A stretch of 64,000 nt of DNA from an uncultured Bacteroidales bacterium (GCA_947593515.1 CANQDQ010000002.1:115471-179470); one strand, 5' to 3'; shown: positions 1,142-58,214, numbered from the stretch's first letter. Numbers and translations are program-made. The notes: generated from the sequence alone by a model not told the origin.

Positions 1142-2349
1142 CAAACGGATACTTTCCGGCAGATAATCAATATTTTATCATTCTTCCATGTGGTGGCGAA
1201 AATGTATGTTTCGCCGCCCTCTTTTATTTTTGCCTGACGGCGCAGCTCGTCTGCCGAAAGCGGAAAGTTGCGGCACGTCAGATTGGCTTGCGGGTAGCGG
1301 GCGGCGCACGTTTTCAGGGTCTGTCGGGAAAAGGGCAGCGTTTCCACGATTTCGAATATCCGCCCTTGAAAATCGGACACGAGTTTTTCGGACGTGTACA
1401 GGTGGCTGCTTGCCGACAATTTGCTGACGCCGAAGTCGCGGCACACCGATTTGTAGGCGCCGGCTTTCAGTATCGAGGCATTCGGTTCGTAGAGGTACGC
1501 GCCGAGCGCAGCCGGCGGTACGGGAGTGGGGAGTGCCGATTCGCCGGAGGGCGTGAACGAATACGTCTGTTCTTCGCCACCCACGAGGTTGATGCAGTGA
1601 ATGACCGCCTCGTCGCTGCACGCGGGCGCCAGCAGGAAAAGCAGCTCTTTGCATTCGTTTTTCACCGACAACACATACACGTCGGTGGAGGCATATTCAC
1701 GCAGCGTCTGCGAAATGTCCAGCATGGGCGACGCTTTCACGAGCAGGCGGGCGCCTTCGGCGGCAACCCGCTGCCACACTTCGGCGATGTCGGGCTCGCA
1801 GTCGGCAAGACCGAATACCCGTCGGTTGCCCCCGCCGCGTCGTGCCGGGTCGATGTAGTAGAGCGCGTGGTGCGGGTGCGGCGCCTGCAAATACTCCCGA
1901 CAGTCGGCGCAGACGACGCTAATATTACGACGCCCGAGCCGGTCGAAATTGTGGCGCGCCACCTCGCAATAGCGCGGGAATCGCTCTATATATGAAACGT
2001 TTTCAGCTGTTTGCGAAAAATAAAGCGTATCGACACCCAGACCGCCCGTAAGGTCGCATATCGTATCGAAGCGTCCGCCGAACAACCGCTGCTTGCATCG
2101 GGCAGTCTCCTCCGACGAGGCTTGCTCTGCCGAGAGCGGCGACGGAAACAGGAGCGATTCGTTTTCCGCCCACGTCGGCAGTTTGCGTCCGGTTTTCTGC
2201 CGTGCCTCTATCTGGTCGATAGCGAATGCCGCCGCTTCGTCGCTGCCGTATTTGAGTCGCAGCCGACAAACATCATCATGCGCGTGCTCGCGTACAAAGT
2301 CGCGGAAATTTTCGAAAACAAGCTGTTCAATCGTTTTATTGTCAGGCAT
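1138..2349 (-). CDS. Class I SAM-dependent methyltransferase with C-terminal THUMP-like region
   Basis: 403 aa. Has the SAM-binding motif I '[10 protein letters not shown]'. Size and architecture fit Bacteroidota THUMP-like methyltransferases. Confidence 0.65.
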
Positions 2350-2618
2350 TTGAATTTATTTTTCGCGGACACTTTTTACAGTCGTAATTCCACACAAAAA
2401 TACGATAAAATTTCAAGATGCCGAAATCCGAGAAGTCGGAAGACACGCGAAAAAACTCGACGTGTTGAAACAGGTTATTTTCGGCAAGAACAAAATTTTG
2501 ACTTTTGCGCACGTTTTATCTGTGAACATAAAACTGTAACGTAAAAAATGTAGAAATGGGAAAATAAAATTTGCGGCGAGAGATAGCGGAATAATTTGTA
2601 ACAGCCGGCGGTTTTTTC

Positions 2619-2626
2619 TATCTTTG
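2619..2626 (+). promoter_or_regulatory. -7 promoter motif TATCTTTG upstream of pyrK
   Basis: TAnnTTTG match 20 nt upstream of the ATG at 2646. Confidence 0.55.
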
Positions 2627-2645
2627 TGCGGAATATGATTGCAAG

Positions 2646-3425
2646 ATGAAAAAACTGATTTCGGATTTGCGTGTAACCGAAAACGTTGCGTTGCACGATC
2701 GTTATGTTTTGTTGAAGGCTGCGCCTGCCGATGGCACGCCGCTGCCCGAAATGCTGCCCGGACAGTTTGCCGAGTTGCGGGTGGACGGTTCGCCGACGAC
2801 TTTTCTGCGGCGTCCCATTTCTATCAACTATGTCGATAGGGCGGCAAACGAAGTTTGGTTTCTCATACAGCTTGTGGGCGACGGCACGCGGCAGTTGGCA
2901 ACGTTGCGGCAGGGCGACACGCTCAATGTCGTTTATCCGCTGGGCAACGGCTTTTCGCTGCCGTCGGGCGATGAACGCCTGCTGCTCGTGGGCGGCGGCG
3001 TGGGAACAGCCCCGCTGCTCTATTTAGGCAGCATGTTGCATGAAAAGGAGTATGCGCCGCATTTCCTTTTGGGCGCGCGCTCGGCGGGCGATGTGCTGCA
3101 AGCGGAAGCGTTCCGACGCTTCGGCACAGTGGATATAACGACCGAAGACGGCAGCGCCGGCGAGCGGGGATATGTAACGCAGCATTCCCTGTTGCAGAAA
3201 GAACATTTCGACCGCATTTACACCTGCGGTCCCAAGCCCATGATGGTGGCGGTAGCGCGATATGCCCGAGCCAACGGCATTGCCTGCGAAGTGTCGCTCG
3301 AAAACACGATGGCGTGCGGCGTGGGCGCCTGTCTGTGCTGCGTGGAAAATACCCGCGACGGACACGTGTGCGTGTGCAAGGAAGGTCCCGTATTCAATAT
3401 AGAAAAATTGTTATGGCAGATTTAA
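2646..3425 (+). CDS. pyrK: Dihydroorotate dehydrogenase (type 1B) electron-transfer subunit PyrK
   Basis: 259 aa. Has the FAD/NAD ferredoxin-reductase fold motifs 'RRPISI' and 'GGGVGTAP'. The C-terminal 2Fe-2S cysteine cluster is 'CGVGACLCC...CVC'. The gene overlaps pyrD. Confidence 0.9.
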
Positions 3426-10497: not shown

Positions 10498-13023
10498 ATG
10501 ATTGAGCAAAACGACAGAATTTTGAAAATCGACATCGAGAAAGAGATGAAACAATCGTACATCGATTACTCCATGTCGGTGATTGTAGCCCGGGCATTAC
10601 CCGACGTCCGCGACGGTTTCAAGCCGGTGCATCGCCGAGTGCTTTTCGGAATGAATGAATTGGGAAATACTTCGGACAAACCCTATAAAAAATCCGCGAG
10701 AATCGTAGGCGAAGTGTTGGGTAAGTATCACCCGCACGGCGATTCGTCGGTATATTTCGCCATGGTGCGTATGGGACAGGAGTGGTCGCTGCGCTATCCG
10801 CTTGTCGATGGACAGGGCAACTACGGCTCCGTCGATGGCGACAGCCCCGCTGCTATGCGTTACACCGAAGCCCGCCTCTCGAAAATGGCGGAGGAGATGT
10901 TGCGCGACATCGACAAAGAAACGGTCGATTTCCAAAAGAACTTCGACGATACGCTCGACGAACCGGTGGTGCTGCCTACCCGTATTCCCAACTTGTTGAT
11001 TAACGGGTCGTCGGGTATTGCCGTAGGTATGGCTACCAATATGCCGCCTCACAACCTTTCCGAATCCATCGACGGCATTATCGCCTACATCGACAACCGT
11101 GACATTACCATCGAGGAGCTGATGCACTACATCAAGGCTCCCGATTTCCCCACCGGCGGATATATATACGGTTATAATGGCGTAAAAGAGGCTTACGAAA
11201 CGGGTCGCGGTCGCATCGTGATACGTTCGAAAGCCGAAATAGAAACGGACGGTCCTCACGAAAAAATCGTTGTTTCCGAAATACCTTACGGCATAAACAA
11301 AGCCGAGTTGATAAAGAGCATCGCCGATTTGGTGGAGGATAAGCGCATCGACGGCATTTCCAACATCAACGACGAATCCGACCGCGCCGGCATGCGCATC
11401 GTCATCGACATAAAGAAAGATGCCAATTCGAGCGTCGTGCTCAACAAACTTTATAAAATGACGGCGTTGCAGTCGTCGTTCAGCGTAAACAACATTGCGC
11501 TGGTAAAGGGACGTCCCGTAACGCTCAATCTCAAACAGCTCATCGAGTCGTTTGTGGAACACCGCCACGAAGTGGTGATACGCCGCACCCGCTACGACTT
11601 GAAAAAGGCGGAGGAGCGCGCCCACATTCTCGACGGCTTGATTATCGCCTGCGACCACATCGACGAAGTGGTGCAAATCATTCGTTCGTCGAAAAGCCCG
11701 GAAGAAGCCCGCAACCGCCTTATGGAGCGCTTCTCCCTCTCCGAAGTGCAGGCTACGGCAATCGTCGATATGCGTCTGCGCCAGCTGACCGGTCTGATGC
11801 AGGAAAAGCTGCATGAAGAATACGACGAACTGATGCGGCAAATCAAATATTTCCATGAAATACTTTCCGACGAAAACGTATGTATGCAGGTCGTCAAAGA
11901 CGAGCTGGTGGAGATAAAAGAGAAGTACGGCGACGAACGGAAAACCGAAATCATCTATTCTTCGGAAGAATTCAACGCCGAAGACTTCTATGCCGACGAC
12001 GAAATGATTATCACCATTTCGCACATGGGCTATATCAAACGTACGCCCTTGACCGACTTCCGCGCACAAAACCGAGGCGGAGTAGGGGCGCGCGGCAGCG
12101 ATACGCGCGAAGAAGACTTTATCGAGTACATCTATCCCGCATCGATGCACAACTATATGCTGTTCTTCACCCAGAAAGGGAAATGCTTCTGGCTCAAAGT
12201 CTACGAGATACCCGAAGGGGCGAAAAACTCGAAAGGTCGTGCCATTCAGAACCTGTTGAACATCGACGCCGACGATAAAGTCAATGCCTTTATCCGCATC
12301 AAGCAATTGCAGGATCCGGAGTACAACATGACCCACAATCTGGTGTTCTGTACGAAAAAAGGCGTTATCAAGAAAACCCGCCTCGAAGCCTATTCGCGTC
12401 CTCGTACCAACGGCGTGAACGCTATCACCATACGCGAAGACGACCAAGTGATACAGGTGCGTCTGACTACCGGCGACAGCGAAATCATCATGGCGAACAA
12501 AGAGGGTAGGGCAATCCGTTTCCACGAAACGAAAGTGCGTGAAATGGGTCGCACCGCCACCGGCGTGCGCGGCATGACGCTCGACGAAAATGTGGGCGAT
12601 GAAGTCATCGGCATGATTTGTGTCAATGATCCCGAGAAAGAAACTGTTATGGTCGTGTCGGAGCAGGGCTACGGCAAACGCTCCGAGATAGAGGATTATC
12701 GCGTAACCAACCGCGGCGGAAAAGGTGTGAAAACCTTGAACATCACGCCGAAAACCGGCAAGTTGGTCGCCATAAAGAACGTTACCGACGAAAATGATTT
12801 GGTAATCATCAACAAATCGGGCATCACGCTGCGGCTGAAAGTGGCTGACGTGCGGGTTATGGGACGCGCCACGCAGGGCGTGCGGCTCATCAACCTCGAA
12901 AAGCGTAACGACGAAATAGCATCGGTATGCAAAGTCTTGTCCGATTCGACGGAAGACGCAATGGAAAATACCGAAGGTACGAATGTTACCGGAGAAATAC
13001 CAACTGAAAAACAACAACAATAA
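10498..13023 (+). CDS. gyrA: DNA gyrase subunit A
   Basis: 841 aa. Shows '[17 protein letters not shown]', the QRDR 'HPHGDSSVY' and the catalytic 'AAMRYTE'. Confidence 0.97.
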
Positions 13024-13039
13024 TTAAAAATAAACGAAG

Positions 13040-14272
13040 ATGAAAAAGATTTTTCTTTTTATTGCCATCGGTCTGATCGGAAGCGGTGCTTTCGCTCAGA
13101 AAAAAAATGTCAATTGGGCGAACAACGAATTGAAACAGGAAAAGCCGAATTACGACGAAGCGCGTGCCCGCTTGAACGAAGCCCGCGAAAATCCCGAATC
13201 GCAGAACGACCCGAAAACGTGGTGGGTGTCGGCAGAAGTGGAAGATGCCATTTATAACCTGAACGACAACAAACGCATTACCAATCAATCGTTTGATGCC
13301 GATGTTATGTACAAAGCGCTGGAAGACGAATACAACTACCTCGAACACGCGCTGTATTTGGATTCCCTGCCGAATGCAAAAGGTAAAGTTGCTCCGAAGT
13401 ATTCAAAAAAAATCATTGACCGGATACAGCAAAGGCATCAAGGATTTTGGGACGCTGCCGTTACTTACTATAAAGATCAGGAATATAAAAAGGCTTGTGA
13501 AATGTGGGAAACCTATTTGGCAATTCCCGAGAAATACGGCATCAGCAAGGAACGTCAGGAAATGATTAATAACGGTATTATAGATAGTTCTTATATTTTC
13601 AGCCGTTATTATGTCGCTTTGGCTGCCTATATATCAAAAGATTACGATTTGGCCATTCCGGCATTGATTAGAGCCAAAGAAATGGACAATTATGACTCAT
13701 TTACCATATATCAATGCTTGGGTGAGTTGTATGGAAACCAGAAAGATACCGCCAATGTGATGGCTATCTCGGAAGAAATTCTCGACCGTTTCGGTATCAA
13801 TAAAGACACCGAGTTCTATCTCCAACAGATGATCAATATCTACATTGCTCTCGGTAAAACAGAAGATGCCATTGCTTATTTGGATAAAGCCATTGCCGCC
13901 AATCCGCGTGCCGAATATTGGAAAGTAAAAGGTCGTTTGTATGAAGAAATAAATAATGAAGATGCTGCAAAGGCTAGCTTTGAAACCGCTTTGGAACTCG
14001 ACCCGAATTTGGCTGACGTATGGGCAGAATTGGGGCGCTTCTATTACAACAAAGCCGTTGAAATAGGGCAGGAGGTCAATAAAATCCAAAATGACGCCGA
14101 ATACAAGAAAGCTCGCGAAGAACGTATCTTCCCGCTCTGCCGCCAGGCATTGACATATTATGAAAAAGCCTATGAACTCGATCCCAACAACCCTGACTGC
14201 ATTTTTGCATTGAAGAGTATATATTATACGTTGGGCGACGAAGAAAAACTAAAATCGTTGGAAGGCAAATAA
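13040..14272 (+). CDS. Tetratricopeptide-repeat (TPR) secreted protein or lipoprotein
   Basis: 410 aa with a signal peptide. It carries repeated TPR-like A/Y/L patterns, for example 'AKASFETALELDPNLADVWAELGRFYY'. Confidence 0.7.
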   Translation: MKKIFLFIAIGLIGSGAFAQKKNVNWANNELKQEKPNYDEARARLNEARENPESQNDPKTWWVSAEVEDAIYNLNDNKRITNQSFDADVMYKALEDEYNYLEHALYLDSLPNAKGKVAPKYSKKIIDRIQQRHQGFWDAAVTYYKDQEYKKACEMWETYLAIPEKYGISKERQEMINNGIIDSSYIFSRYYVALAAYISKDYDLAIPALIRAKEMDNYDSFTIYQCLGELYGNQKDTANVMAISEEILDRFGINKDTEFYLQQMINIYIALGKTEDAIAYLDKAIAANPRAEYWKVKGRLYEEINNEDAAKASFETALELDPNLADVWAELGRFYYNKAVEIGQEVNKIQNDAEYKKAREERIFPLCRQALTYYEKAYELDPNNPDCIFALKSIYYTLGDEEKLKSLEGK

Positions 14273-14298
14273 AAAATTCCGAATTTCGCACAAATGAC

Positions 14299-14330
14299 AA
14301 AAGCCGCTTCATGGAAGCGGCTTTTGTCGT
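14299..14330 (+). terminator. Rho-independent terminator after the TPR gene
   Basis: 12-bp stem aaaagccgcttc/gaagcggctttt with a T-tract. Confidence 0.8.
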
Positions 14331-14501
14331 ATTTCAGTGATTATAAATTATGCTTTGTGCGTCAATTCGTCAAGGAGTGATTTCCATTGTTCCATGATAA
14401 TCTGTTTCTCGAATCGTTTGCTGCTTTCGATGGCGTTTGCTGCCATTTATTACTTAACATAATATTAATTATAGAACACAAGATCGCATCTGAATCTGAA
14501 A

Positions 14502-14993
14502 TTATTTATCCGGAGAATAGGTTTCGAATGTATTGTCGGAATAATATATCATGATTTTTACGACACGACGTTTATTTTCTCGTTGTTGCGAGTCGGAATT
14601 TCCTGTCGATGTATTGCCCGTTTTTGTTTTATCATCAGAAGTTTGTCTTGAATTACTGTCCGTTTTTAACCCCGAATCCTTGCCGTATTTGGTTGCATTC
14701 TCGTCATCTGACCGGAATATTTCATTTTCGGGAAAGAAACTGAGCGGATTTCGAGCCTGTTTTTTGAAAGGTTCGCCTTCGCCATACAGCAGCCAATCGG
14801 TAGACACATCGGGATAGGCTGTATGTATCTTCGATATGATTTCTTTGCTGACACCATTTGTTCCGTTCAAGCATTGCGACAGCGTGGAACGGTTGGTTTG
14901 TATATTTTGGGCAAATGCAGCATCGTTGAGATTGTAGTGGCGTATCAACTGTTTGATGCGTTCTTTCAGGTCGGTGTCCTTATCTTCTGCCAT
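14502..14993 (-). CDS. Helix-turn-helix (XRE-like) DNA-binding protein
   Basis: 163 aa. The N-terminal HTH is 'LNDAAFAQNIQTNRSTLSQCLNG...VSKEIISKIHTAYPDVSTDWLLYGEG'. This is followed by a low-complexity S/T/N/D linker and a short C-terminal tail. The gene is A+T-rich. Confidence 0.75.
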   Translation of the reverse strand: MAEDKDTDLKERIKQLIRHYNLNDAAFAQNIQTNRSTLSQCLNGTNGVSKEIISKIHTAYPDVSTDWLLYGEGEPFKKQARNPLSFFPENEIFRSDDENATKYGKDSGLKTDSNSRQTSDDKTKTGNTSTGNSDSQQRENKRRVVKIMIYYSDNTFETYSPDK

Positions 14994-15040
14994 ACGAATG
15001 TCGATTATTTCGGATTATTTTGCATTTACGCTTGCGTTCG

Positions 15041-15048
15041 CAAATATA
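15041..15048 (-). promoter_or_regulatory. -7 motif TATATTTG (minus strand) upstream of the HTH gene
   Basis: Plus-strand caaatata, 48 nt upstream of the start at 14993. Confidence 0.45.
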
Positions 15049-15651
15049 AATAATAAAATTCAATTTTCAAAATTCATAATTATAAACACGGCAGCTCCAC
15101 AAATAGAAATATTTGTTGTTACAAACGGAAAAGTATTTGCAATTTTACTTCAATATTTACACCTATCGAATTAGTTTATATATTGTTATTTAGCTTACAT
15201 TGCATGAATTTTCTCGGGCGCTTTTCGGTATTTATTTTTATGCAGCGATATTTTGACGGTTGCTATTCGATAAATTCAATAAATACACCTATTTTACTGA
15301 TTTATAATTGGTAATATGGATTAGTCATTGCATTTTGCATATTGTTTTTGAGGCTGTTTGCTTTTAATTACATACTGTTTTGAAATAAGAACAAATGAAT
15401 TTTTGAACATTTGAATTTCACAAGAAAATTTACAGGGCTACAGCGATTTCGTTCATATATGTGAACAAAAAATATTGAAATGACTTAAACTCGTTTTTAT
15501 TCGTTTTGTGCCGTCCAAACGGACATTCAAACGGAAATATGCCGGCCATTTGACGTTAAAATAGCCCATATTAACATTTAATTGAATGGGTTACAGGCGA
15601 TTAAATGGATTTTAAGTCCCCTACTCTTTTTTCTACAATCGGAGAAAACCG

Positions 15652-16680
15652 TTAGTTATGCATGATTTTGTAGAGCAGTTCTTGGAGCAATTCGGCGAAC
15701 GAGGTATCGGGAGCGCACTCCACTCCTTTCGAGCGGGCATCGTAACGTCGTATATTCGAGATGATTTCGACGCATTTTCCTGCCTTGTAAGTTTTCAACC
15801 CTTGCAGATAATCGTCGGCGGCATACCAATTGACGCCCAATTCCGAAGCGATGCCGGCAGCGTTTTTTTGACAGGACGAATAGTGCAGCAAAAGCAGGTT
15901 GGCGAAATAGGAAAACAGCGAACTGAAAGCGATAAAAGGCTGGTCGCTTTTGGTATTGGCATAATATTGCACGATACGTCCGGCGCGGAGCAAATCTCGG
16001 CGCGCCACGGCTTTTATCAGTTCCGTGTTGTTAAATTCCTTGCTGATGCCGATATGCAGCTCCACCGTGTCGGCGGTGATGCGGTTCTGCTCTGCCGCCG
16101 ACAGCAGTACGCCCAATTTGTCGATTTCGCTCGTCAGGCGCGACAGATTTGTTCCGATGGCTTCGCCCAGCATCGAGGCGGCATTATTGTCTATGGTCAA
16201 TTTTTTTTCGCGAACATAATCCGCGATAAACGCCGGTAACTGGCTGTCGTATATGCGTTTCGATTCGAACACCAAGCCGAGCCGGTTGGCTTCGGCAAGG
16301 ATTTTTTTGTTTTTGAACGTACCGCTTTTATGATTCAGCACCAACACGGTAGTCGGCTGCGGATTCTGCATATAGAACAGCAATTCGTCAATGCTGCGCA
16401 TCTGTTGCAGCTCCTTGACTACGACCAGCTGCCGTTGCGCCATCATGGGATAGCGGCGGGCGGCATTGAGTATGGTTGCCATATCGGTGTCGGCGCCGTA
16501 AACGATGGTTTGGTTGAAGTCGCGCTCACTGTCTGCCAGTGCGTTTTTTACGATTTCATCGGTAATCAGGTCGATATAGTAAGGCTCCTCTCCCATAAGC
16601 AGATACACGGGTTTGAACTCCTGCCTGCGTATGTCGGCAATGATCGAGGTATATTCGGCTGTCGGCGACTTTTTTGCCAT
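15652..16680 (-). CDS. holA: DNA polymerase III subunit delta (HolA)
   Basis: 'FKPVYLLMGEEPYYIDLITDEI' is the typical HolA N-terminus. I chose the start at the internal Met (MAKKSPTAEY, cat at 16678-16680), not the 16863 extension that would overlap the divergent gene. Confidence 0.8.
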   Translation of the reverse strand: MAKKSPTAEYTSIIADIRRQEFKPVYLLMGEEPYYIDLITDEIVKNALADSERDFNQTIVYGADTDMATILNAARRYPMMAQRQLVVVKELQQMRSIDELLFYMQNPQPTTVLVLNHKSGTFKNKKILAEANRLGLVFESKRIYDSQLPAFIADYVREKKLTIDNNAASMLGEAIGTNLSRLTSEIDKLGVLLSAAEQNRITADTVELHIGISKEFNNTELIKAVARRDLLRAGRIVQYYANTKSDQPFIAFSSLFSYFANLLLLHYSSCQKNAAGIASELGVNWYAADDYLQGLKTYKAGKCVEIISNIRRYDARSKGVECAPDTSFAELLQELLYKIMHN

Positions 16681-44895: not shown

Positions 44896-45363
44896 ATGCA
44901 GGAAATCGAAAGAAAGTTTTTGGTGCGGAACGACGGCTACAAAGCCGGCGCATCGCATACCGAATACCGGCAGGGCTACCTATGCGTCGATGCCGACCGT
45001 ACCGTGCGGGTGCGCGCGGCTGCCGGCAAAGGCTATATCACCGTAAAGGGGCGCACGCAAGGGTGTACACGCGCAGAGTATGAATACGAAATACCCATCT
45101 CCGATGCCTGTCAGATGCTCGACACGCTTTGCCGGAAACCGCTGGTCGAAAAGACCCGCTACCGCTGCACCGGCAGCGACGGAAAGGTGTGGGAAATCGA
45201 CGAATTTAAGGGCGTAAACGAAGGGCTCGTCGTTGCCGAAATCGAATTGCAGAGCGAAACCGAACCGTTCGCCCGCCCCGACTGGCTCGGCGACGAAGTG
45301 AGCGGCGACCCGCGCTATTACAATTCCTACCTCTTGGAACACCCTTATAACGAGTGGAAATAA
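44896..45363 (+). CDS. CYTH domain protein (triphosphate tunnel metalloenzyme)
   Basis: 155 aa with the N-terminal 'EIERKFLV' ExExK signature and matching length. Confidence 0.85.
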   Translation: MQEIERKFLVRNDGYKAGASHTEYRQGYLCVDADRTVRVRAAAGKGYITVKGRTQGCTRAEYEYEIPISDACQMLDTLCRKPLVEKTRYRCTGSDGKVWEIDEFKGVNEGLVVAEIELQSETEPFARPDWLGDEVSGDPRYYNSYLLEHPYNEWK

Positions 45364-45471: not shown

Positions 45472-45558
45472 GGAAAGATGCCGGAGTGGTCGATCGGGAC
45501 GGTCTCGAAAACCGTTGTACCCTTTCGGGTACCGAGGGTTCGAATCCCTCTCTTTCCG
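45472..45558 (+). tRNA. tRNA-Ser (anticodon CGA)
   Basis: Manual cloverleaf: acceptor GGAAAGA/TCTTTCC, anticodon stem ACGGT/ACCGT with loop CTCGAAA, long variable arm TGTACCCTTTCGGGTAC, T-arm GAGGG-TTCGAAT-CCCTC. No CCA is encoded. Confidence 0.92.
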
Positions 45559-45563
45559 CAGAA

Positions 45564-45598
45564 ATCGGGTGTAAATTTATGATTTACACCCGATTTTT
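45564..45598. terminator. Strong hairpin terminator after tRNA-Ser, possibly also serving the convergent 157-aa gene
   Basis: 13-bp perfect stem atcgggtgtaaat/atttacacccgat, a 5-nt loop, and a T-tract on the plus strand. It lies 8 nt from the stop of the minus-strand CDS at 45606. Confidence 0.85.
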
Positions 45599-45605
45599 CA
45601 TTTCA

Positions 45606-46079
45606 TTAATCGTCTTCAAACGCTTTATTTTCGATGTGATGTCCGGTAACTTCTTCAAGGAAATCTTCGCGCATCACCATCAGCAGGTTGCGTGTGTATT
45701 CTTGAAGAAGGCCCTTATAATACGTTACGTCCTTGTGGTTCGTTTGGGTGATACGTTCCCATAGCGTTCGTTCCGTAGCCGCTTTATGAGCCTTGTCTAT
45801 CGATTCACGGTCATTGTCTGTCATCAATTTACGCAGCTTTTGTTCCTCCAACACCAACGGAGTACCTTTCAACTTTTTCGGTGCATATTCCCGCCACACC
45901 TCTTCAAGAAATACACGATATTCTGCCTCAATCTTCAGTGGCAGGTCTTTCGTGTACGCTCCTATGGTTTCCGGACGTTCTACCGCCGCCTCTTTCACAA
46001 GGTGCCCAAAATATTTGTTGAGCAGCTCCTGCTCTTTCTCTGTACAGAGCTTTTTTATTTGTTTGCCGAAATTATTCAT
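45606..46079 (-). CDS. Hypothetical all-helical soluble protein, third gene of the low-GC operon
   Basis: 157-aa ORF, highly charged (K/E-rich), with no TM segment and no motif I recognise. It starts 17 nt after the stop of the 743-aa gene. Confidence 0.6.
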   Translation of the reverse strand: MNNFGKQIKKLCTEKEQELLNKYFGHLVKEAAVERPETIGAYTKDLPLKIEAEYRVFLEEVWREYAPKKLKGTPLVLEEQKLRKLMTDNDRESIDKAHKAATERTLWERITQTNHKDVTYYKGLLQEYTRNLLMVMREDFLEEVTGHHIENKAFEDD

Positions 46080-46096
46080 CTTATATCATTCTATCA

Positions 46097-48328
46097 TCAG
46101 ACATTTTTATGTTCTGTCATTTTCAAAATCCATGTAATATAGCGGGAAAATTCTTTATCTAATTTCTGAATATCATCTAATTTTTCATATGGGCGAATGT
46201 CATGATGAATAAAGCGTTCTTTATTCCGTTTAAGAAGATTGCTAAGCTGCTCATTTTTAACAGCATATTTATCTTCATTTCGATGGGCCTTTCGATAACC
46301 CATCAGAAGTTTTTCAACATTCCACCGATTATGCTCGAGACGTGCCATCATATTCACTTCTTCATCTTTGAGCGGTTGAGTGTCATGACTTGTGTCGTCT
46401 TGTTTAAGACCTCGCATAGAGCGTAATGCGGCTAATTTAATTCCTATGGCATAGGCGTTATAAAGATTCGACCATTTAAGTGCCACAGGAAGACTGTTCC
46501 AACATTCATTGGCTTCTGCCCATACCTGCTCCCTCGATATGCTCTCTAATGCCAATAGACTCTGGAATTTGTTGGCAGACGGCATGGTATAATAAAGGTA
46601 ATTAATGAGTTTGGCTCGTTCCAACGACTTCTCATCGGCACTATATGCTGTTTCGTTCATTCCAAAGGGATATATATTGGCATAACGGCCGCCCAATACC
46701 TTCGACTCAATATCTCCGTCTTTTACTGCATAGTAAGTGTTCTTTTTCTTATTCGCACGTATGGCTTCATCGGTTTCCCGCAGATTGCTGACAAAGTTAT
46801 CTGAACGGTCTTGGCGAATGAACACCGGCACCTCATTGTCATACACGGCATCGGGCATATTCATACCCAATACAAAGTTCTCCCGCTGATTGGGCATAGC
46901 CAAGAAAATGGAGAGGTACTGTTGGCGATTATGTTCTTCAGCCCATTTACAAATCATGTCCTGTACCTCTTTCGAGAATACATCGCCTTTAATGAATTCA
47001 AATTCTACGTCAAGGAAGTTGGCGTCGTCATCTGTATAGCCGTTTTCCTTAGTAAAATATAGATATTCGTTCCGCAGGTAGTCTTCTTTCGATTTATAAT
47101 TAGCTCCTTGTGAAAGGTCGCTGTAATAGTACGGCTGCACTTCAAAGAAATGACGATTGCGTATGATAAATTCATCTTTCTCCTTATCCGCATTTTTATC
47201 TATGAATGAAATCAGGGTTTTAACCTTGCTGCCATTTGGGAAATGGAGTACATGGGCTGCTTCCATAGCAAAGGCTACGGCAAAATTAGTCGTACCCACA
47301 AAGGTGAGGTGGACATATCGGGTATCATCTTTTGTCAAAGCCGTCGTGTCGTTTTCGGCATAGCCTTTGCCATACACAGCGGGATAAGGAATTTTTTGTT
47401 CGGGCTGGTTGATGTCGGTATAGAAGAAACGTTTCACAAACACCTGTTTAGCCCAGCCGGCATAGAAATTATATGGTACGAACTCCATTCCCAAATTCTT
47501 TACTCGACCAAAAATTTCGGAAGTCTTAAATGCCGCATAGGTATCAAGATCCTCAAATACGCAAGTGATACGTTTCGGTCGGTCGGTTATCATAGGTTGT
47601 TCCAAATAGGTGCATATACTATCCACACATTCCACATTGATGGCATCGTGTGATGGCAAGGTACGCAACCCCACAATATAAACTTGCTCTGCTGTTTCAA
47701 GGTGAATGTCTTTATAGTAGTCCTTAGAAGTTCTGTGGCCATAGTTGATAATAATGCGGCTCAGCTGTTTTTCATTGAACACTTTTCGCAGTTTTTCTCG
47801 GATATATTCCGAATCTGCCGCACTCATCAGCAGTATAAAGGCTTTCTTTTCTTTTTCGAAAATATGCATAATAATGGAAGGTACCATATCATCGTATCCC
47901 ATAATGATGTAATGACCGGATTTGAGATAGTGGATATGTCCTTTCTTATGGTTGGCTACCCTTCGCTCTATAGAGTTGGTAATGATACCGATGATGATGC
48001 CGTTGAATATAAATATCCCGCACAAAAAAGTTATACTGCTGGCAATCAACATCCAGCCGTGAACGGCAGACCCTTGCTCTGCACTGCCGATATAGAGGTT
48101 ATTCAGTGCATTGGAGTCTATCAACAAATAGATTGGCAACAGCCATTTATTCAGATCTTTATCTTTACAAAATTGTTCCCATTCTACTCCCGACCACCGC
48201 CAAAACATCAGGTATGACAATCCTAATGCGATGATAAGCACGATTCCCAAAAAAAAGAATTGCCTCCATAGGCTCCTCGACAATGAACGGTCGAACAATA
48301 ATTTAATGATAGAACGAGACTTATTCAT
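46097..48328 (-). CDS. Membrane-anchored protein: 2-TM channel-like N-terminus, degenerate Rossmann/RCK-like modules, C-terminal RyR-repeat-like domain
   Basis: 743-aa ORF. TM1 is 'WRQFFFLGIVLIIALGLSYLMFW' and TM2 is 'WMLIASSITFLCGIFIFNGIIIGIITNSI'. Right after TM2 comes 'GHYIIMGYDDMVPSIIMHIF', a beta-alpha start placed like TrkA_N/RCK but without GxGxxG. A second similar segment is 'VHLTFVGTTNFAVAFAMEAA'. The C-terminus 'LEHNRWNVEKLLMGYR...HHDIRPYEKLDDIQKLDKEFSRY' resembles the RyR repeat. Confidence 0.75.
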   Translation of the reverse strand: MNKSRSIIKLLFDRSLSRSLWRQFFFLGIVLIIALGLSYLMFWRWSGVEWEQFCKDKDLNKWLLPIYLLIDSNALNNLYIGSAEQGSAVHGWMLIASSITFLCGIFIFNGIIIGIITNSIERRVANHKKGHIHYLKSGHYIIMGYDDMVPSIIMHIFEKEKKAFILLMSAADSEYIREKLRKVFNEKQLSRIIINYGHRTSKDYYKDIHLETAEQVYIVGLRTLPSHDAINVECVDSICTYLEQPMITDRPKRITCVFEDLDTYAAFKTSEIFGRVKNLGMEFVPYNFYAGWAKQVFVKRFFYTDINQPEQKIPYPAVYGKGYAENDTTALTKDDTRYVHLTFVGTTNFAVAFAMEAAHVLHFPNGSKVKTLISFIDKNADKEKDEFIIRNRHFFEVQPYYYSDLSQGANYKSKEDYLRNEYLYFTKENGYTDDDANFLDVEFEFIKGDVFSKEVQDMICKWAEEHNRQQYLSIFLAMPNQRENFVLGMNMPDAVYDNEVPVFIRQDRSDNFVSNLRETDEAIRANKKKNTYYAVKDGDIESKVLGGRYANIYPFGMNETAYSADEKSLERAKLINYLYYTMPSANKFQSLLALESISREQVWAEANECWNSLPVALKWSNLYNAYAIGIKLAALRSMRGLKQDDTSHDTQPLKDEEVNMMARLEHNRWNVEKLLMGYRKAHRNEDKYAVKNEQLSNLLKRNKERFIHHDIRPYEKLDDIQKLDKEFSRYITWILKMTEHKNV

Positions 48329-48714
48329 TTGCTGCTCTCATTAATGTCTTTCAATGCATTATCTATTTCTTCAAGATATTTGTTCAAGTCTTTACCAAGT
48401 GCCGACAACTTCATATTCCACAAGACCGCTTTCTGTTTTCGCACACATTCTTTTTCGTCCCACTTCTTTTTTCTTTCTTCAGAATAGTGTTTAGAGATGA
48501 CCTCAATCAGTTTTACGAGAATATATCCCGCAACGCAAATTGCTGCAACCATAACGACTGTCCATGTAATTTGTCTCATTATCTCAACGTCAGCCCAGTT
48601 TGTCGCTGCCTCGTTCATACGGCATAGACTATCTTCGGTCGCCTTTGTTAATTTCTCAACCATATTGTCTTTTAGGACAATCGTGTCATTCAGATTTAAA
48701 ATATAGATGCTCAT
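48325..48714 (-). CDS. Small single-pass membrane protein with coiled-coil tail, first gene of the low-GC operon
   Basis: 129 aa with the TM helix 'ITWTVVMVAAICVAGYILVKLI' followed by a K/E-rich helical segment. Its stop overlaps the start of the 743-aa gene (ATGA). Confidence 0.6.
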   Translation of the reverse strand: MSIYILNLNDTIVLKDNMVEKLTKATEDSLCRMNEAATNWADVEIMRQITWTVVMVAAICVAGYILVKLIEVISKHYSEERKKKWDEKECVRKQKAVLWNMKLSALGKDLNKYLEEIDNALKDINESSK

Positions 48715-48763
48715 AATGTTTGTAAAGTTTGTGAGAGTAGTAAGTCAAAAAAATCTATAAATA

Positions 48764-48771
48764 CAAAGATA
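48764..48771 (-). promoter_or_regulatory. -7 motif TATCTTTG (minus strand) upstream of the low-GC operon
   Basis: Plus-strand caaagata, 50 nt upstream of the start at 48714. Confidence 0.5.
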
Positions 48772-48832
48772 GTGAAAAACATATTGTAATAGCAAGTAAT
48801 TTTGACTGTTTTTAAGAAAATGAATAATGCCG

Positions 48833-49645
48833 TCATACTTTTGTCGGGTTCACACCCAAGTGGTGCTGTACGTAGCGGCTGAAATAGGCTGTCGAGGAAA
48901 ATCCGAACATATCGGAAATTTGTACGAGCGAGAGCGTTTTGTCGCGCAGCAGGCGCGATATGTCGAGTATCGTGTAACGGTTTATCCAATAGTTGGCGGC
49001 ATATCCGCTCACCTTTTTTGAAACTTCCGACAGGTATTTGGCGGTTACGCACAAGCTGTCAGCATAGAAAGAGACTTCCCGATGCTCGCGATAGCTCCCC
49101 GCCTCCAACATTCTCAAAAAACGGCTCATGATAGAGGCGTTCTGCGTGGATATGTCGTTTTCGCCATAAAGGCGGGCATGGAAGTCGAAGAAATCGAGAA
49201 TGGCGTTCTGCATGGCGTTTATCAACGTTTCGCGATAGAAGCGGTGATTTGTATCTTGAATGCGCGATGCCAGCATTTTGAAATTGCGCCGACATAGGCT
49301 TTGCTGTTCGGGCGAAAGGTGCATCACGGGATTCAGAAACAGCGCCAGCGAGCCTTTCATGCCGTAGTTGCTCTGCGGCGTACACAGTTCGATGAAGCCG
49401 GGTTTTGCGTAGATGATTTCGGCTTGAAAATCGTCCGATGCCTCTACGTTCTCTACCATTTTCCGTTTGCGGATAATGGAGAGGTCGCCGGCGCGCATTT
49501 CAAATGTTTTTCCATTGAAAGTATAGCGGCACGTACCGCTTACGCAAAACAGATGCGCCAGATATTCGTCTTCAATATCTGTTTCCAGCCGTCGGTTCCA
49601 GTCGGTAACGATGATGTCGCTCGTTGTTTCCATATTTGTTTGCAC
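48833..49645 (-). CDS. AraC family transcriptional regulator
   Basis: 270 aa with an N-terminal cupin-like sensor and a C-terminal double HTH 'SFYADSLCVTAKYLSEVSKK...ISDMFGFSSTAYFSRYVQHHLG'. Confidence 0.85.
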   Translation of the reverse strand: MQTNMETTSDIIVTDWNRRLETDIEDEYLAHLFCVSGTCRYTFNGKTFEMRAGDLSIIRKRKMVENVEASDDFQAEIIYAKPGFIELCTPQSNYGMKGSLALFLNPVMHLSPEQQSLCRRNFKMLASRIQDTNHRFYRETLINAMQNAILDFFDFHARLYGENDISTQNASIMSRFLRMLEAGSYREHREVSFYADSLCVTAKYLSEVSKKVSGYAANYWINRYTILDISRLLRDKTLSLVQISDMFGFSSTAYFSRYVQHHLGVNPTKV

Positions 49646-51099: not shown

Positions 51100-53286
51100 T
51101 TAATATCCCGGATTTTGATTAAGACCTTCTCCCATAGGGATAGGCCATAGAAGCTGATACAAGTTATCTTGGCTTAGCCCCATAAAAGTTTCGCCCAATT
51201 GATTTCTTCTGATAAAATTCAGGTAACTTGGCGATTTTATTTGATAGTGCAGAGAAGCGATTGCTTTCAAAATGTCTGACTGATCGACAGTAAGATCTTT
51301 ATACGTACATAATTGGTCGATGTATTCTTTGGCTTTAGATGAATTTCCTGTATGATATAGACATTCTGCGGCTGTCAATATCACGTCTTTGTAATCAAGG
51401 CACGGATAGCATTCCTCTCCTGTTTCGATGGTCTGTCCGATGAGATATCCTAAAATACATTCCGAATTATTTTTGTATTCGGCAGCTTGGGAATGTTCCA
51501 AGTGATAATTGCCGCCATTTATGACTTCCTCCAATAAAGGCAAGGCTTTGTCGAATTTCTTTTGGTTGCAAAAGAGGTAAGCGAGCAGGGTTCGTGCCAC
51601 ATCTTTGGAAACGAAAAGCATACTATTGGCATCGTGAAAAGCGTCATAACGGTGTTCATTCAAGTCGGTCATGGCATCGACCAGCATTTCCTCCAATTTT
51701 GAAAGGATTTCTGCTTCCTCTGTTCGTGGTAAGTCGTAGTCGTAGGAATAACTCATTATGAAAGGAACACCTCCCCAACGTGAAGATAACTGATAGTAGG
51801 CTAACGCAAGATGAGTATCGATAAAAGACTGGTAACAGTTCGACTTATCTGCATCAGCCTCTTTTAACGACAGCCAAATATTGATAGCTCGGTAGTAATA
51901 ACTCCACGTATTTCTGATTCTATCATCTGATGCCTGATAGGGAACGGGATTGCTAAAATCCTCTTGATAGGCATAAGCTGTTTGCAAATTGAGTTGAGCC
52001 GAAATGGCATTTCTCATGGACACCATACATAACTCCACAAGATCTCTCCCGTCACTGCCAAGTTTTACGGGATCGTGCTTAATCCAATAATCTTTGTCGC
52101 CTTGTTGCTTAACAGCGATTTTGGCAGCGACCCTACCTCTTGCATTATAAACAGTAATGACGGCCGATAGGTCTTCTCTAAATTGTGCCGGTGCAATTTT
52201 AATGCTGATGACATCTTTGTTAATTGCTATGTCTATCTTTATAGATGTTGGAATGTTTATGTCCCTATCTTCATATAGTTTGATAGAGAACATTGGCTGT
52301 ACCTCTTCTGGGTAGATGTCATCTGATTCAAATGCGGGAGGATTTAGAAAATAAGGCTTGTCGGATTTAATGATAATAGCATATTCTCCGCCTTCGGTCG
52401 GTACATTCAGCTCATTTTCACTAAGTGTAACAGCATCAGATTCATCTAATTCATTTCCGGCTATGCCGTCATTGTCCCAGTCGAAATAATAAGCCAAATC
52501 CTTGATAGCGATTTCTTTTCCTAATTCTTTATAACGATTTTTGAGATTTTCGGAAATTCTATCCAACCTTTCATTCAAGTAGCCTATACCTGATTGTATC
52601 TTTTTCTTTGTTTCTTGGCTAAAAGCTCCTTCGGCGCCAAACTCATTGGTTAGTATAGAGAGAAACTCAACGATTTCGGCATCGGACCTATCGGTTAAAA
52701 TCAAAGCGGTTATGGCTATTAATGCACCGGAGGCATCGTCTCCGGAAGTGATGGAGAATTGGCTTATATCTTTTGACGCATATTTTTGCAACCCGAATTG
52801 GGTAAGCAATTCTTCTTGGGCTTGTGCATTCGCCTGTTTGTATGTCTGGTCTTCTGTTGTTACCAAATGGCGGATTCGTGTACTCATCAAATGGGTTAAT
52901 ACATTGATGTTGATTGTATTGTTGTTGTTCAAATCGACAATAGCGTCTAATTGGATCGTACCCTCCGACAACTCTCCATGCACTTCGTTAAAGAAGTAAC
53001 CGCCAACCGTCAGTTTGGCATACGAATTATTTATTTTGAGCGCTTCATAATTGAAGTCCCCGAAGTCGTTGTCGATAGTGGCGGTGTAAGAGTTGCCGGT
53101 AGGAGTCAAAGATTCATCTAATGTTCGTATTTCTACGTGAGAACCACGAATCATCGATTCTGCCTTTCCTTTTACATTGAATACATTAGGAGAAACACTC
53201 CCTTCGGTTTCTTCGTCGTTGCATGAGGATAGTGCAAAAACGAATGTGGCGGATAAATAAAAAATCTTTTTTAATTTCATACGCAT
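51100..53286 (-). CDS. Chimeric lipoprotein: about 400-aa non-SusD N-terminal region (including an Ig/BACON-like segment) fused to a RagB/SusD-like C-terminal half
   Basis: 728 aa with the lipobox 'FALSSC'. The C-terminal part carries SusD hallmarks: 'WSYYYRAIN', 'HLALAYYQLSSRWGGVPFI', and the terminal 'WPIPMGEGLNQNPGY'. The gene is A+T-rich and has no adjacent SusC/TonB-dependent receptor gene. Confidence 0.6.
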   Translation of the reverse strand: MRMKLKKIFYLSATFVFALSSCNDEETEGSVSPNVFNVKGKAESMIRGSHVEIRTLDESLTPTGNSYTATIDNDFGDFNYEALKINNSYAKLTVGGYFFNEVHGELSEGTIQLDAIVDLNNNNTININVLTHLMSTRIRHLVTTEDQTYKQANAQAQEELLTQFGLQKYASKDISQFSITSGDDASGALIAITALILTDRSDAEIVEFLSILTNEFGAEGAFSQETKKKIQSGIGYLNERLDRISENLKNRYKELGKEIAIKDLAYYFDWDNDGIAGNELDESDAVTLSENELNVPTEGGEYAIIIKSDKPYFLNPPAFESDDIYPEEVQPMFSIKLYEDRDINIPTSIKIDIAINKDVISIKIAPAQFREDLSAVITVYNARGRVAAKIAVKQQGDKDYWIKHDPVKLGSDGRDLVELCMVSMRNAISAQLNLQTAYAYQEDFSNPVPYQASDDRIRNTWSYYYRAINIWLSLKEADADKSNCYQSFIDTHLALAYYQLSSRWGGVPFIMSYSYDYDLPRTEEAEILSKLEEMLVDAMTDLNEHRYDAFHDANSMLFVSKDVARTLLAYLFCNQKKFDKALPLLEEVINGGNYHLEHSQAAEYKNNSECILGYLIGQTIETGEECYPCLDYKDVILTAAECLYHTGNSSKAKEYIDQLCTYKDLTVDQSDILKAIASLHYQIKSPSYLNFIRRNQLGETFMGLSQDNLYQLLWPIPMGEGLNQNPGY

Positions 53287-56909: not shown

Positions 56910-56930
56910 CGCAAAATATAGATGAGTTAT

Positions 56931-58214
56931 ATGAAAAAATTTTATTTAGTTGCTGTGATACTTTCTTGCACATTTAGCTGTTCGCAAGAAAAAGAATCCG
57001 ACTTACCGGAAAGTAACGAAAATTCAGAAAATGAAAATTCGGAAATTCTATATTCCGGAACATTACCCGTTTTGCGCATCGATACCGAAGGAAACGCACC
57101 TATTGTATCGAAAGAAAAATATCTGAATGCGACTTATTATCTCGATGCTCTCGAGCTTGACGGATATGAGTCGATAGGAAACCGTGAAAATCCGCTTCCT
57201 CTCAAAATAAGAGGACGTGGAAATTCTTCATGGTCGAATTATGACAAAAAACCGTATCGTCTTAAATTGGATTCAAAAGCCGCCCTTTTGGGATTGAAAA
57301 AGAATAAGAATTTTGTACTCATTCCTCATGTGGGAAGTGTTTTTTTACGAGAATATGCCGGATTCGAATTAGGCAGAATGATCGGACTTCCTTGGACACC
57401 GAACATGACGCCGTTGGAAATCGTGTTGAACAGGGAATATATCGGTCGATATTTTTTGGTGGAGAACATTCGGGTCGATGAAAATCGGGTGAATATTTTT
57501 GAACAGCCCGATGAAACGACCGACCCTGCCATAATACCCGGCGGTTGGCTTGTCGAATTGGATAATTACAACGATCCCGCTCAAATAAAATTACAGGAAG
57601 AAAACGGTCTGACGTTACGGATTACTTATCATACACCAGAAATCCTTTCGGCACAGCAGGAAACATTCTTGCGAAACGAAATTACAGCCATGAGCCGTGC
57701 TATTTACGAGCCCGATAAAAATTCCACCGAATGGGAAAATTATATCGATATGGACATTCTTGCCCGCTATTATATCGTACAGGAATGTATCGACAATGCC
57801 GATGCTTTTCATGGCAGTACTTATCTGTATAAAGATGCCGGAGATAATCAAAAATGGATATTCGGTCCATTATGGGATCTTTCATTTTGTTTTTATCGGA
57901 CAAAAAACGATTTTATTTATAATAACGGATATTGGGAAAAATACAATTGGATTGCAGAAATTGCCAAATTCCCCCGCTTTCAGGAAAAAGTGCGTGAAAT
58001 ATGGAGCGATTTCTATTCAACGCAGTATCCGCAAATTTTTGAACGTCTTGAAAGTTTTGCTGCTCTTTGTGCCGGAGCAGACGAGGCTACCCGCAACAGA
58101 TGGGAACAATACGACAAACGTCCTACCGATGAAATGTTGCGCGAGGCAAAACGTTATCTGACAGCACAAACCGAATGGCTGAATGAACAGTGGAGCAAAC
58201 CTTTTTCAAATTGA
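56931..58214 (+). CDS. CotH kinase family lipoprotein
   Basis: Start taken at 'MKKFYLVAVILSCTFSC' (lipobox). 'YDKKPYRLKLD...KNFVL' and later conserved segments resemble the CotH family. Confidence 0.75.
   Translation: MKKFYLVAVILSCTFSCSQEKESDLPESNENSENENSEILYSGTLPVLRIDTEGNAPIVSKEKYLNATYYLDALELDGYESIGNRENPLPLKIRGRGNSSWSNYDKKPYRLKLDSKAALLGLKKNKNFVLIPHVGSVFLREYAGFELGRMIGLPWTPNMTPLEIVLNREYIGRYFLVENIRVDENRVNIFEQPDETTDPAIIPGGWLVELDNYNDPAQIKLQEENGLTLRITYHTPEILSAQQETFLRNEITAMSRAIYEPDKNSTEWENYIDMDILARYYIVQECIDNADAFHGSTYLYKDAGDNQKWIFGPLWDLSFCFYRTKNDFIYNNGYWEKYNWIAEIAKFPRFQEKVREIWSDFYSTQYPQIFERLESFAALCAGADEATRNRWEQYDKRPTDEMLREAKRYLTAQTEWLNEQWSKPFSN

Follow-up and report, generated by a model that had tools for sequence, protein, structure and literature searches.

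A predicted tandem-RCK channel with a RyR-like domain and a small membrane partner belongs to TIR-rich islands of Bacteroidales

Between a tRNA-Ser(CGA) gene and an AraC-type gene, a 64,000-nucleotide (nt) stretch of DNA from an uncultured Bacteroidales bacterium (GCA_947593515.1 CANQDQ010000002.1:115471-179470; the whole stretch is called the window here) carries a patch of three minus-strand open reading frames (ORFs) at 45599-48832, encoding proteins of 129, 743 and 157 amino acids (aa). The core of our finding is a two-gene membrane module made of the 129-aa and 743-aa genes. From family profiles and a structural model, the 743-aa protein is predicted to combine a P-loop pore of the tetrameric cation channel type with two RCK domains and a C-terminal RyR/Repeat12-like domain; we refer to it as the channel and to the 129-aa protein as its partner. 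In Bacteroidales, this module is part of a pool of accessory genes found in islands that are rich in TIR, STAND and RyR genes. We give roughly even odds (a probability of about 0.5) to the reading that the channel is a nucleotide-gated effector from TIR conflict islands, its gating by a nucleotide being what we infer; in the window it is found without a nearby TIR gene. A first-pass annotation of the window had recognised the three genes and taken them for one candidate conflict or defence system; the observation was confirmed, and the interpretation was partly supported.

The three proteins gave no match in Pfam, NCBIfam, PADLOC or PHROGs; as had been expected from the outset, none of them matched a PADLOC-DB v2 model at E ≤ 1. 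A word-indexed search recovered 1197 relatives of the channel, none with a Pfam domain on record, and the few that bear a name from their source are all labelled hypothetical protein. By exhaustive search the family comprised 1222 clusters at 50% identity, and its hosts are gut and rumen Bacteroidales. The channel was modelled as a monomer with AlphaFold2 from an alignment of 92 diverse members, giving a predicted local distance difference test score (pLDDT) of 92 and a predicted template modelling score (pTM) of 0.89. The best Foldseek matches of this model in the PDB were GsuK, Slo1/BK, the gating rings of CASTOR/DMI1, and MthK (E 3e-7 to 1e-5), with alignments spanning full-length GsuK and MthK. 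When the family profile was compared with the PDB, it matched the RCK domain of DMI1 (E 2.9e-6) and that of CASTOR, aligned to the S5-pore-S6 region plus RCK1 of Slo1 (E 1.4e-5), and further matched GsuK, MthK and the pores of Lmo2059 and TPC1. In addition, distant family members matched the Pfam family Slo-like_RCK, one of them exceeding the gathering score. The 743-aa protein is thus not without known counterparts: it is a predicted tandem-RCK P-loop channel with a RyR-like domain.

The AlphaFold2 model and the family profile place a predicted pore at aa 1-128 of the channel (47945-48328, minus strand), made of an N-terminal amphipathic helix, a first transmembrane helix (TM1), a re-entrant pore helix and a second transmembrane helix (TM2). 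It is followed by tandem Rossmann-type RCK domains at aa 135-560 (46649-47926, minus strand), a candidate gating ring according to Foldseek, Pfam and the profile. A helical linker at aa 561-654 (46367-46648, minus strand), read from the secondary structure of the model, connects RCK2 to a divergent RyR/Repeat12-like domain at aa 655-743 (46100-46366, minus strand), which was assigned by hhalign, the profile and conserved residues; the linker itself showed no similarity to the RyR profile in hhalign. Of the features expected of RCK-gated P-loop channels, two were found, namely two transmembrane helices around a re-entrant pore helix and an RCK domain after the inner helix. TM2 contains a hinge glycine, G104 (97% conserved in the family), and N118, and the pore region holds a conserved motif, LLID[PS][GN], at positions 68-73, represented by IDSN in the 743-aa protein. 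A K+ filter of the TVGYG type (T-[VI]-G-[YF]-G) was not found in the channel, whose filter-equivalent positions 74-78 read ALNNL.

The family therefore shares with the known tandem-RCK P-loop channels (GsuK of Geobacter, MthK, Slo1/BK and plant CASTOR/POLLUX/DMI1) a pore of two transmembrane helices with a re-entrant pore helix, an inner-helix hinge glycine and two Rossmann-type RCK domains after the pore, although the identity of the 743-aa protein to solved channels is only about 10-12%. It differs from them in having LLID[PS][GN] and a poorly conserved stretch in place of the TVGYG-type filter, in its extra helical linker, in its C-terminal RyR-like domain, in its dedicated small membrane partner, and in being an accessory gene of conflict islands. 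Its predicted structure sets the family apart as a new branch of the tandem-RCK P-loop channels. Two kinds of homologue depart from this layout. At locus L025, a 492-aa soluble homologue (1555-3033) consists of the RCK2 and RyR-like parts alone, without transmembrane helices; after it come a protein containing a trypsin-like region and a TPR-CHAT protein. The distant homologues P0221, P0226 and P0231 (990-1346 aa) end in an FGE-sulfatase domain, a sensor-type domain that is also fused to TIR in genes neighbouring the channel.

The assignment of the C-terminal domain was examined at the level of profiles and of single residues. In hhalign against a profile built from true stand-alone RyR domains, aa 655-733 gave a probability of 97.1% (E 5.4e-11), and the family profile matched the repeats of RyR1 (E 4.3e-6) and the Bacteroides thetaiotaomicron RyR protein 3NRT (E 0.024). 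Four residues, H666, W669, H708 and D724, are each conserved in at least 90% of the channel family and, once an insertion of 15 residues and a gap of one are allowed for, align to the H, W, H and D of RyR domains (reference spacing 3/22/17). Two 2026 preprints report that the cyclic ADP-ribose (cADPR) isomers made by TIR immune enzymes are bound or cleaved by RyR-domain proteins of phages, and that the same pocket is present in animal ryanodine receptors, whose regulation by cADPR remains unsettled. The contacts to 2'/3'cADPR are H75, W78, H100 and D117 in phage RyDEP, a glycosidase several of whose homologues are sponges, and H129, W132, H154 and D171 in RyR Tad (PMC13232231; doi 10.64898/2026.06.04.730250). 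The four ligand-contact residues of RyR domains are therefore retained in the C-terminus of the channel, where they outline a predicted pocket. Like the RyR/Repeat12 proteins of PF02026 (RyDEP, RyR Tad, 3NRT and animal R12), the domain is a helical repeat with H-x-x-W, H and D, but it comprises just one repeat, which is divergent and carries 15 inserted residues, and it lies below the Pfam threshold. Whereas the phage RyR proteins stand alone, the RyR-like domain described here is fused to a channel and is host-encoded.

The partner (48325-48714, minus strand) is a bitopic protein: a short N-terminal segment leads into a single transmembrane helix (about aa 48-70), and the C-terminal part is a charged coiled coil. 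The stop codon of its gene and the start codon of the channel gene (46097-48328, minus strand) overlap by 4 nt in an ATGA junction, as first described. An iterated hidden Markov model (HMM) search among about 10,750 ORFs converged on 29 relatives of the partner. All but one of these lie directly upstream of a channel gene, at gaps of -20 to +85 nt, and they hold this position even at loci where the channels are just about 30% identical. Since the partner sits directly upstream in all but one match and across divergent channels, the two genes form a conserved pair. The context of the family was sampled at 77 loci from GTDB species representatives, with 80 loci (1.17 Mb) as controls, and the partner family was seen at 23 of the 77. 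At L085 (Phocaeicola plebeius) and L090 (uncultured Bacteroidales), the proteins matched by the partner HMM carry a bona fide RyR domain at their N-terminus (E 1e-45 to 1e-47), and at L086, L088 and L091, all from Bacteroides, a RyR domain (E about 1e-35) is likewise present in the gene immediately preceding the channel gene, which the partner HMM missed.

The neighbourhood of the family links it to TIR genes. A TIR gene lies within 10 kb of the channel at 42/77 loci and within 5 kb on the same strand at 36/77, while a separate RyR gene is found on the same strand within 2 kb at 42/77. Taken together, a TIR or RyR gene occurs within 10 kb at 60 of the 77 channel loci and at none of the 80 control loci. 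Close homologues of the channel have among their neighbours transglutaminase-kinase-TIR, Macro-TIR, TIR-WD40, TIR-LRR and TIR-FGE-sulfatase proteins, as well as nSTAND1-TPR and RyR-domain proteins. Among 112 same-strand neighbours (set A2, from 30 channel loci), TIR_2 was the top Pfam family, followed by RyR, TPR, TerB, CHAT and nSTAND1; PADLOC matched TIR/ThsB models most often in these neighbours, and it gave no match for the stand-alone RyR gene, the partner with RyR and transmembrane segments, or the soluble channel homologue. The suspicion of a conflict or defence setting was thus borne out by relatives whose neighbours are mostly TIR, RyR, nSTAND1, CHAT, TPR, WD40, LRR and FGE-sulfatase proteins. 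The commonest neighbour cluster is a RyR protein of about 99 aa, and a tight run of channel, RyR (99 aa), TIR with a transmembrane helix (381 aa) and TPR genes recurs at 13 loci.

Some details of these neighbourhoods were recorded in passing. Downstream of the channel, the run occupies 12156-15681 at L057, and its layout recurs at L045, L054, L058, L060-L064, L072, L080 and L081. Its TPR protein has 645-687 aa and a signal-like N-terminus. Its 381-aa protein has an N-terminal TIR domain, one transmembrane helix and a beta-rich C-terminal part, which is probably outside the cytoplasm; this topology resembles that of a Toll-like receptor. TerB-domain proteins account for 6 of the 112 immediate neighbours, and occasional neighbours include Cas6, a type II restriction enzyme, and DpdF and BrxH homologues. 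Carriage of the channel by phages or plasmids was considered and rejected, as the family was not found in PLSDB plasmids and was nearly absent from phage records; a Foldseek search of a viral library with the channel returned a phage K+-channel protein alone.

The locus itself varies between near-identical strains. Two contigs from other samples, L176 and L178, match the window with 100% identity along 4.3 kb, and a third contig, L008, is 94-99% identical to it at both ends (blastn) and contains 5.7 kb of extra DNA whose junction maps to 46040-46098 of the window, as read from blastn, the L008 ORFs, Pfam and the junction sequences. In the extra DNA, part of the AraC 3' end and promoter is duplicated, and there are genes for a 509-aa TIR protein and a 1214-aa nSTAND1 protein, so that the order in L008 is partner, channel, TIR, nSTAND1 and a 153-aa homologue of the 157-aa gene; homology to the window resumes at 46039 and continues through the tRNA. 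The duplicated AraC 3' end and promoter region (L008 3008-3205, 198 nt, 94% identical to window 48775-48972) lies between the channel and TIR genes, and its promoter region is degraded. The two alleles mark the interval from AraC to tRNA-Ser as a hotspot of recombination, with two alleles at the least, and the claim that these are accessory genes stands. The channel of the window compared with that of L008 gave a ratio of non-synonymous to synonymous substitution rates (dN/dS) of 0.17, indicating purifying selection.

Several further features of L008 were noticed. The 198-nt duplicate looks like a recombination scar joining two cassette alleles. The channels of the window and L008 (46097-48328 versus L008 744-2975) differ by 12 amino acids, 7 of them in the first 33 residues; this clustering in the N-terminal helix and TM1 suggests a small recombination tract or local diversification. 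The L008 partner (319-747) has 142 aa, compared with 129 in the window, owing to a 13-residue tandem duplication (SALGKGSEEYIVV / SALGKD). The nSTAND1 protein (L008 4938-8582) has, by eye, a long hydrophobic stretch of multi-transmembrane appearance at about aa 430-760, which is unusual for a STAND NTPase.

The above findings suggested a model in which the channel is the effector of a nucleotide signal. TIR proteins would turn NAD+ into ADP-ribose (ADPR)-type nucleotides (ADPR or cADPR isomers), to be bound by the RyR-like domain of the channel; this domain might act by itself, or it might pair with another RyR domain, contributed either by the partner or by one of the small stand-alone RyR proteins. 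Nucleotide binding would then be passed on to the gate by the RCK ring, and the resulting ion flux would lead to loss of membrane potential or of ion balance, and thus to a growth stop of the infected or stressed cell. By buffering or hydrolysing the signal, small RyR proteins could set its threshold. Because the window has no TIR gene in cis, its channel would need to respond to TIR/NADase genes located outside the window in this genome, or else to a different adenine nucleotide. The fully specified version of this model, in which TIR-derived cADPR-type nucleotides gate the channel through its RyR/Repeat12 domain, the channel is a common downstream effector for the many TIR sensors of an island, and the small RyR proteins are threshold buffers, we hold only tentatively and regard as somewhat doubtful.

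A number of observations weigh against the effector model. No TIR gene lies within 10 kb at 35 of the 77 channel loci; the partner-channel pair of Bacteroides stands between housekeeping genes with no TIR gene nearby. The 64-kb window has neither a TIR gene nor a stand-alone RyR gene. Ion conduction by the channel is not assured, because a recognisable selectivity filter is missing and the filter-equivalent residues are poorly conserved across the family. The Pfam RyR model PF02026 gave no match to the 743-aa protein even at E ≤ 1, and a home-made plain RyR HMM scored the C-terminus at 9.2 bits, so that the domain has to be regarded as a divergent RyR member whose assignment depends on profile-profile comparison and motif spacing. 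Animal R12 domains also bind ATP and ADP (PMC12627627), so that the ligand of the channel could be an ordinary adenine nucleotide. Finally, many island TIR proteins, fused to STAND or repeat domains, may be NAD+-depleting effectors and not signal makers.

Some of these observations can also be read in favour of a physiological, ligand-gated cation channel whose RCK and RyR-like domains would respond to ordinary adenine nucleotides (ATP, ADP or NAD). It would serve ion homeostasis or membrane-potential control, with its location in variable regions being accidental. GsuK, the closest structure, binds ADP and NAD according to the titles of its structure entries; the adenine nucleotides bound by animal R12 domains would fit such control, as would the housekeeping setting of the Bacteroides pair and the lack of a TIR gene in the window. 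Conversely, this explanation has to accommodate a missing K+ filter, an accessory gene of low guanine-plus-cytosine (GC) content, a context that differs between near-identical strains, and the contrast between 60/77 channel loci and 0/80 controls with a TIR or RyR gene. We consider it rather unlikely.

The original interpretation, by which the 129-, 743- and 157-aa proteins would make up a new defence system on their own and act together without other parts, appears unlikely. The arrangement is compact enough to suggest it. The 157-aa ORF (45606-46079, minus strand) follows the channel gene after a 17-nt gap, as had been reported; a candidate -7 promoter box, TATCTTTG (48764-48771, minus strand), read from the sequence 50 nt 5' of the ATG of the 129-aa gene, fits the Bacteroidetes consensus TAnnTTTG as proposed, a consensus match alone; and one terminator-like hairpin (45560-45598, both strands, 18 pairs counted, 3-nt loop), also seen at the outset, follows the last gene. 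The tight spacing with a single promoter-like box and one terminator, together with the 100% identity of the arrangement in two other samples, argues for a unit. Moreover, the 157-aa family usually partners a RyR gene: a gene for a 97-119-aa RyR protein comes next after the 157-aa homologue in 5/5 independent contexts (L009, L011, L013, L180 and L183), and the only RyR-like domain here is the C-terminus of the channel, 17 nt upstream. Against this, a member of the 157-aa family occurs near the channel at only 5/79 species loci, which identifies the 157-aa gene as an island gene and not a channel-specific partner. In L008, the TIR and nSTAND1 genes part the 157-aa homologue from the channel, and the 157-aa gene is the common flank of both alleles at the locus. 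In addition, no similarity of the 157-aa protein to either the channel or RyR domains could be detected, hhalign against both profiles being negative. Recurrence of the channel with both small genes, proposed as a check at first, was therefore found for the 129-aa family and not for the 157-aa family; what is conserved is the 129-aa plus 743-aa pair.

The 157-aa family is large, with 2426 homologues located in TIR/nSTAND1/CHAT islands and about 80% identity across the 120 clusters listed. Such identity of this 155-aa family across very different islands is striking for an island gene. The AlphaFold2 model of the 157-aa protein is all-helical (pLDDT 73); a profile search of the PDB gave no significant match, and Foldseek gave generic helical bundles alone. 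A 10-residue local likeness that appeared in the hhalign comparisons (HKDVTYYKGL / HPcLVPYdeL) was treated as chance.

We also weighed the possibility that the RyR-like domain removes a signal, as RyDEP and RyR Tad do, degrading or sequestering cADPR-type nucleotides and thereby damping or ending TIR signalling at the membrane, or serving as counter-defence of a mobile element. The catalytic H/D dyad of RyDEP is kept in the channel as H666 and D724, and the RyR-domain proteins characterised so far in a TIR context are sponges or glycosidases. It is not obvious, however, why a signal remover should be fused to a complete pore plus tandem RCK ring, and separate small RyR genes, which would be better buffers, adjoin the channel at 42/77 loci. 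The family is also chromosomal, being absent from PLSDB plasmids and nearly so from phage records. Signal removal is thus, in our judgement, quite improbable. Still less credible is a decaying remnant, functionless passengers left after loss of TIR and nSTAND1 genes, which would fit L008 as the fuller allele and the TIR-less window, but which is opposed by three intact ORFs, by the dN/dS of 0.17, by the persistence of TIR-less partner-channel pairs in Bacteroides and Alistipes, and by the partial AraC duplication, which fits L008 as a derived, recombinant allele at least as well.

The wider setting of the patch was examined for signs of a genomic island. The patch is flanked by an AraC-type gene (48833-49645) and a CYTH gene (44896-45363), both assigned by Pfam, and the tRNA-Ser(CGA) gene (45472-45559, plus strand; ARAGORN and Rfam) forms the right-hand border of the variable segment; the hairpin, lying between the stop codon of the 157-aa gene and the 3' end of the tRNA, serves both convergent genes. 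An Rfam scan of the window found three tRNAs and nothing else. The claim of a foreign composition survived in part. With a GC content of 0.403 the patch is the lowest of all 3.2-kb stretches of the window, and only 0.16% of sliding windows are as low; the three genes have values of 0.379 (129 aa), 0.408 (743 aa) and 0.447 (157 aa), compared with a window gene mean of 0.504 and a standard deviation of 0.050. The 157-aa gene is, however, merely about one standard deviation below that mean, and four further window genes are equally AT-rich, for example 51100-53286, 56922-58214 and 13040-14993 (GC 0.40-0.42); because other genes are as low, low GC alone does not mark out the patch.

As noted at first sight, no integrase accompanies the genes, none being found among the ORFs of the window. 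No convincing att repeat was found at the locus either, the sole flanking repeat being a 30-nt pair of 70% identity that brackets the tRNA itself. The proposed insertion at the tRNA was thus not shown: of the marks of a tRNA-integrated genomic island, an integrase and direct repeats of the tRNA 3' end were not found, while variable content at one site in close relatives is present (L008 versus the window, L176 and L178). The search for an empty site at CYTH/tRNA-Ser/AraC returned none. An exact look-up of the AraC protein found no record, and a metagenome scan with it gave 80 loci at 76-79% identity, none syntenic with CYTH, tRNA-Ser, DUF362 or the trio and hence uninformative on an empty site. 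An exact look-up of the CYTH protein recovered only the arrangement of the window and one contig ending at the tRNA.

In functional terms, type X Thoeris is the closest validated system; it consists of a ThsB TIR protein and a ThsK ion-channel effector and is anti-phage in Bacillus (bioRxiv 10.64898/2025.12.03.692087). In Vibrio sp. JCM 19052, ThsK is 208 aa long and its filter reads TLTYGG; unlike the channel family, it has neither RCK nor RyR domains. Homology between the two was rejected: in hhalign, the family alignment against Vibrio ThsK (L179 3369-3995) gave a probability of 0.2%. At that Vibrio locus (L179 2740-4468), we noted that the 208-aa channel-like effector lies between two ThsB-type TIR genes, not one. 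Type X Thoeris has a small ThsB, whereas the TIR genes near the channel family are mostly of TIR_2 types, fused to SIR2-like, transmembrane, WD40, LRR, TPR or FGE-sulfatase modules. A TIR gene in the operon of the effector, as in Thoeris, is absent from the 64-kb window and present in L008. Thus, the statement that the trio is unlike any named defence system remains valid in that PADLOC gave no match, but its dismissal of Thoeris-type kinship is doubtful, because the channel family is tied to TIR genes.

The neighbourhood has the same make-up as the Bacteroidota TIR/STAND islands described by Kaur et al. (eLife 2020 and 2021), with nSTAND1, CHAT-TPR and TIR-WD40/LRR/FGE-sulfatase proteins; RyR-domain genes, RCK domains and ion channels are not mentioned there as island components. 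Literature searches turned up no description of channels that combine RCK and RyR domains, nor of RyR genes situated in TIR islands. We infer a TIR-linked channel effector built of known domains in an undescribed combination.

These results annotate about 1,200 clusters of an unnamed family together with two companions, the membrane partner and the 155-aa protein paired with a small RyR protein, and they fill a gap, as none of the channel, partner and companion genes is in the defence-system catalogues checked. The RyR domain now has a known ligand class, and the channel family joins a RyR-like domain to a predicted full pore and RCK ring amid TIR genes, offering a compact system for tying nucleotide binding by a RyR domain directly to channel gating. 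If the fully specified version of the effector model is true, the family would be the prokaryotic equivalent of two schemes known from eukaryotes, one being the activation of ryanodine receptors by cADPR, long a matter of dispute, and the other the plant arrangement with many TIR sensors feeding a helper cation channel. An origin in bacteria would then follow for the pairing of an ion channel with a RyR domain.

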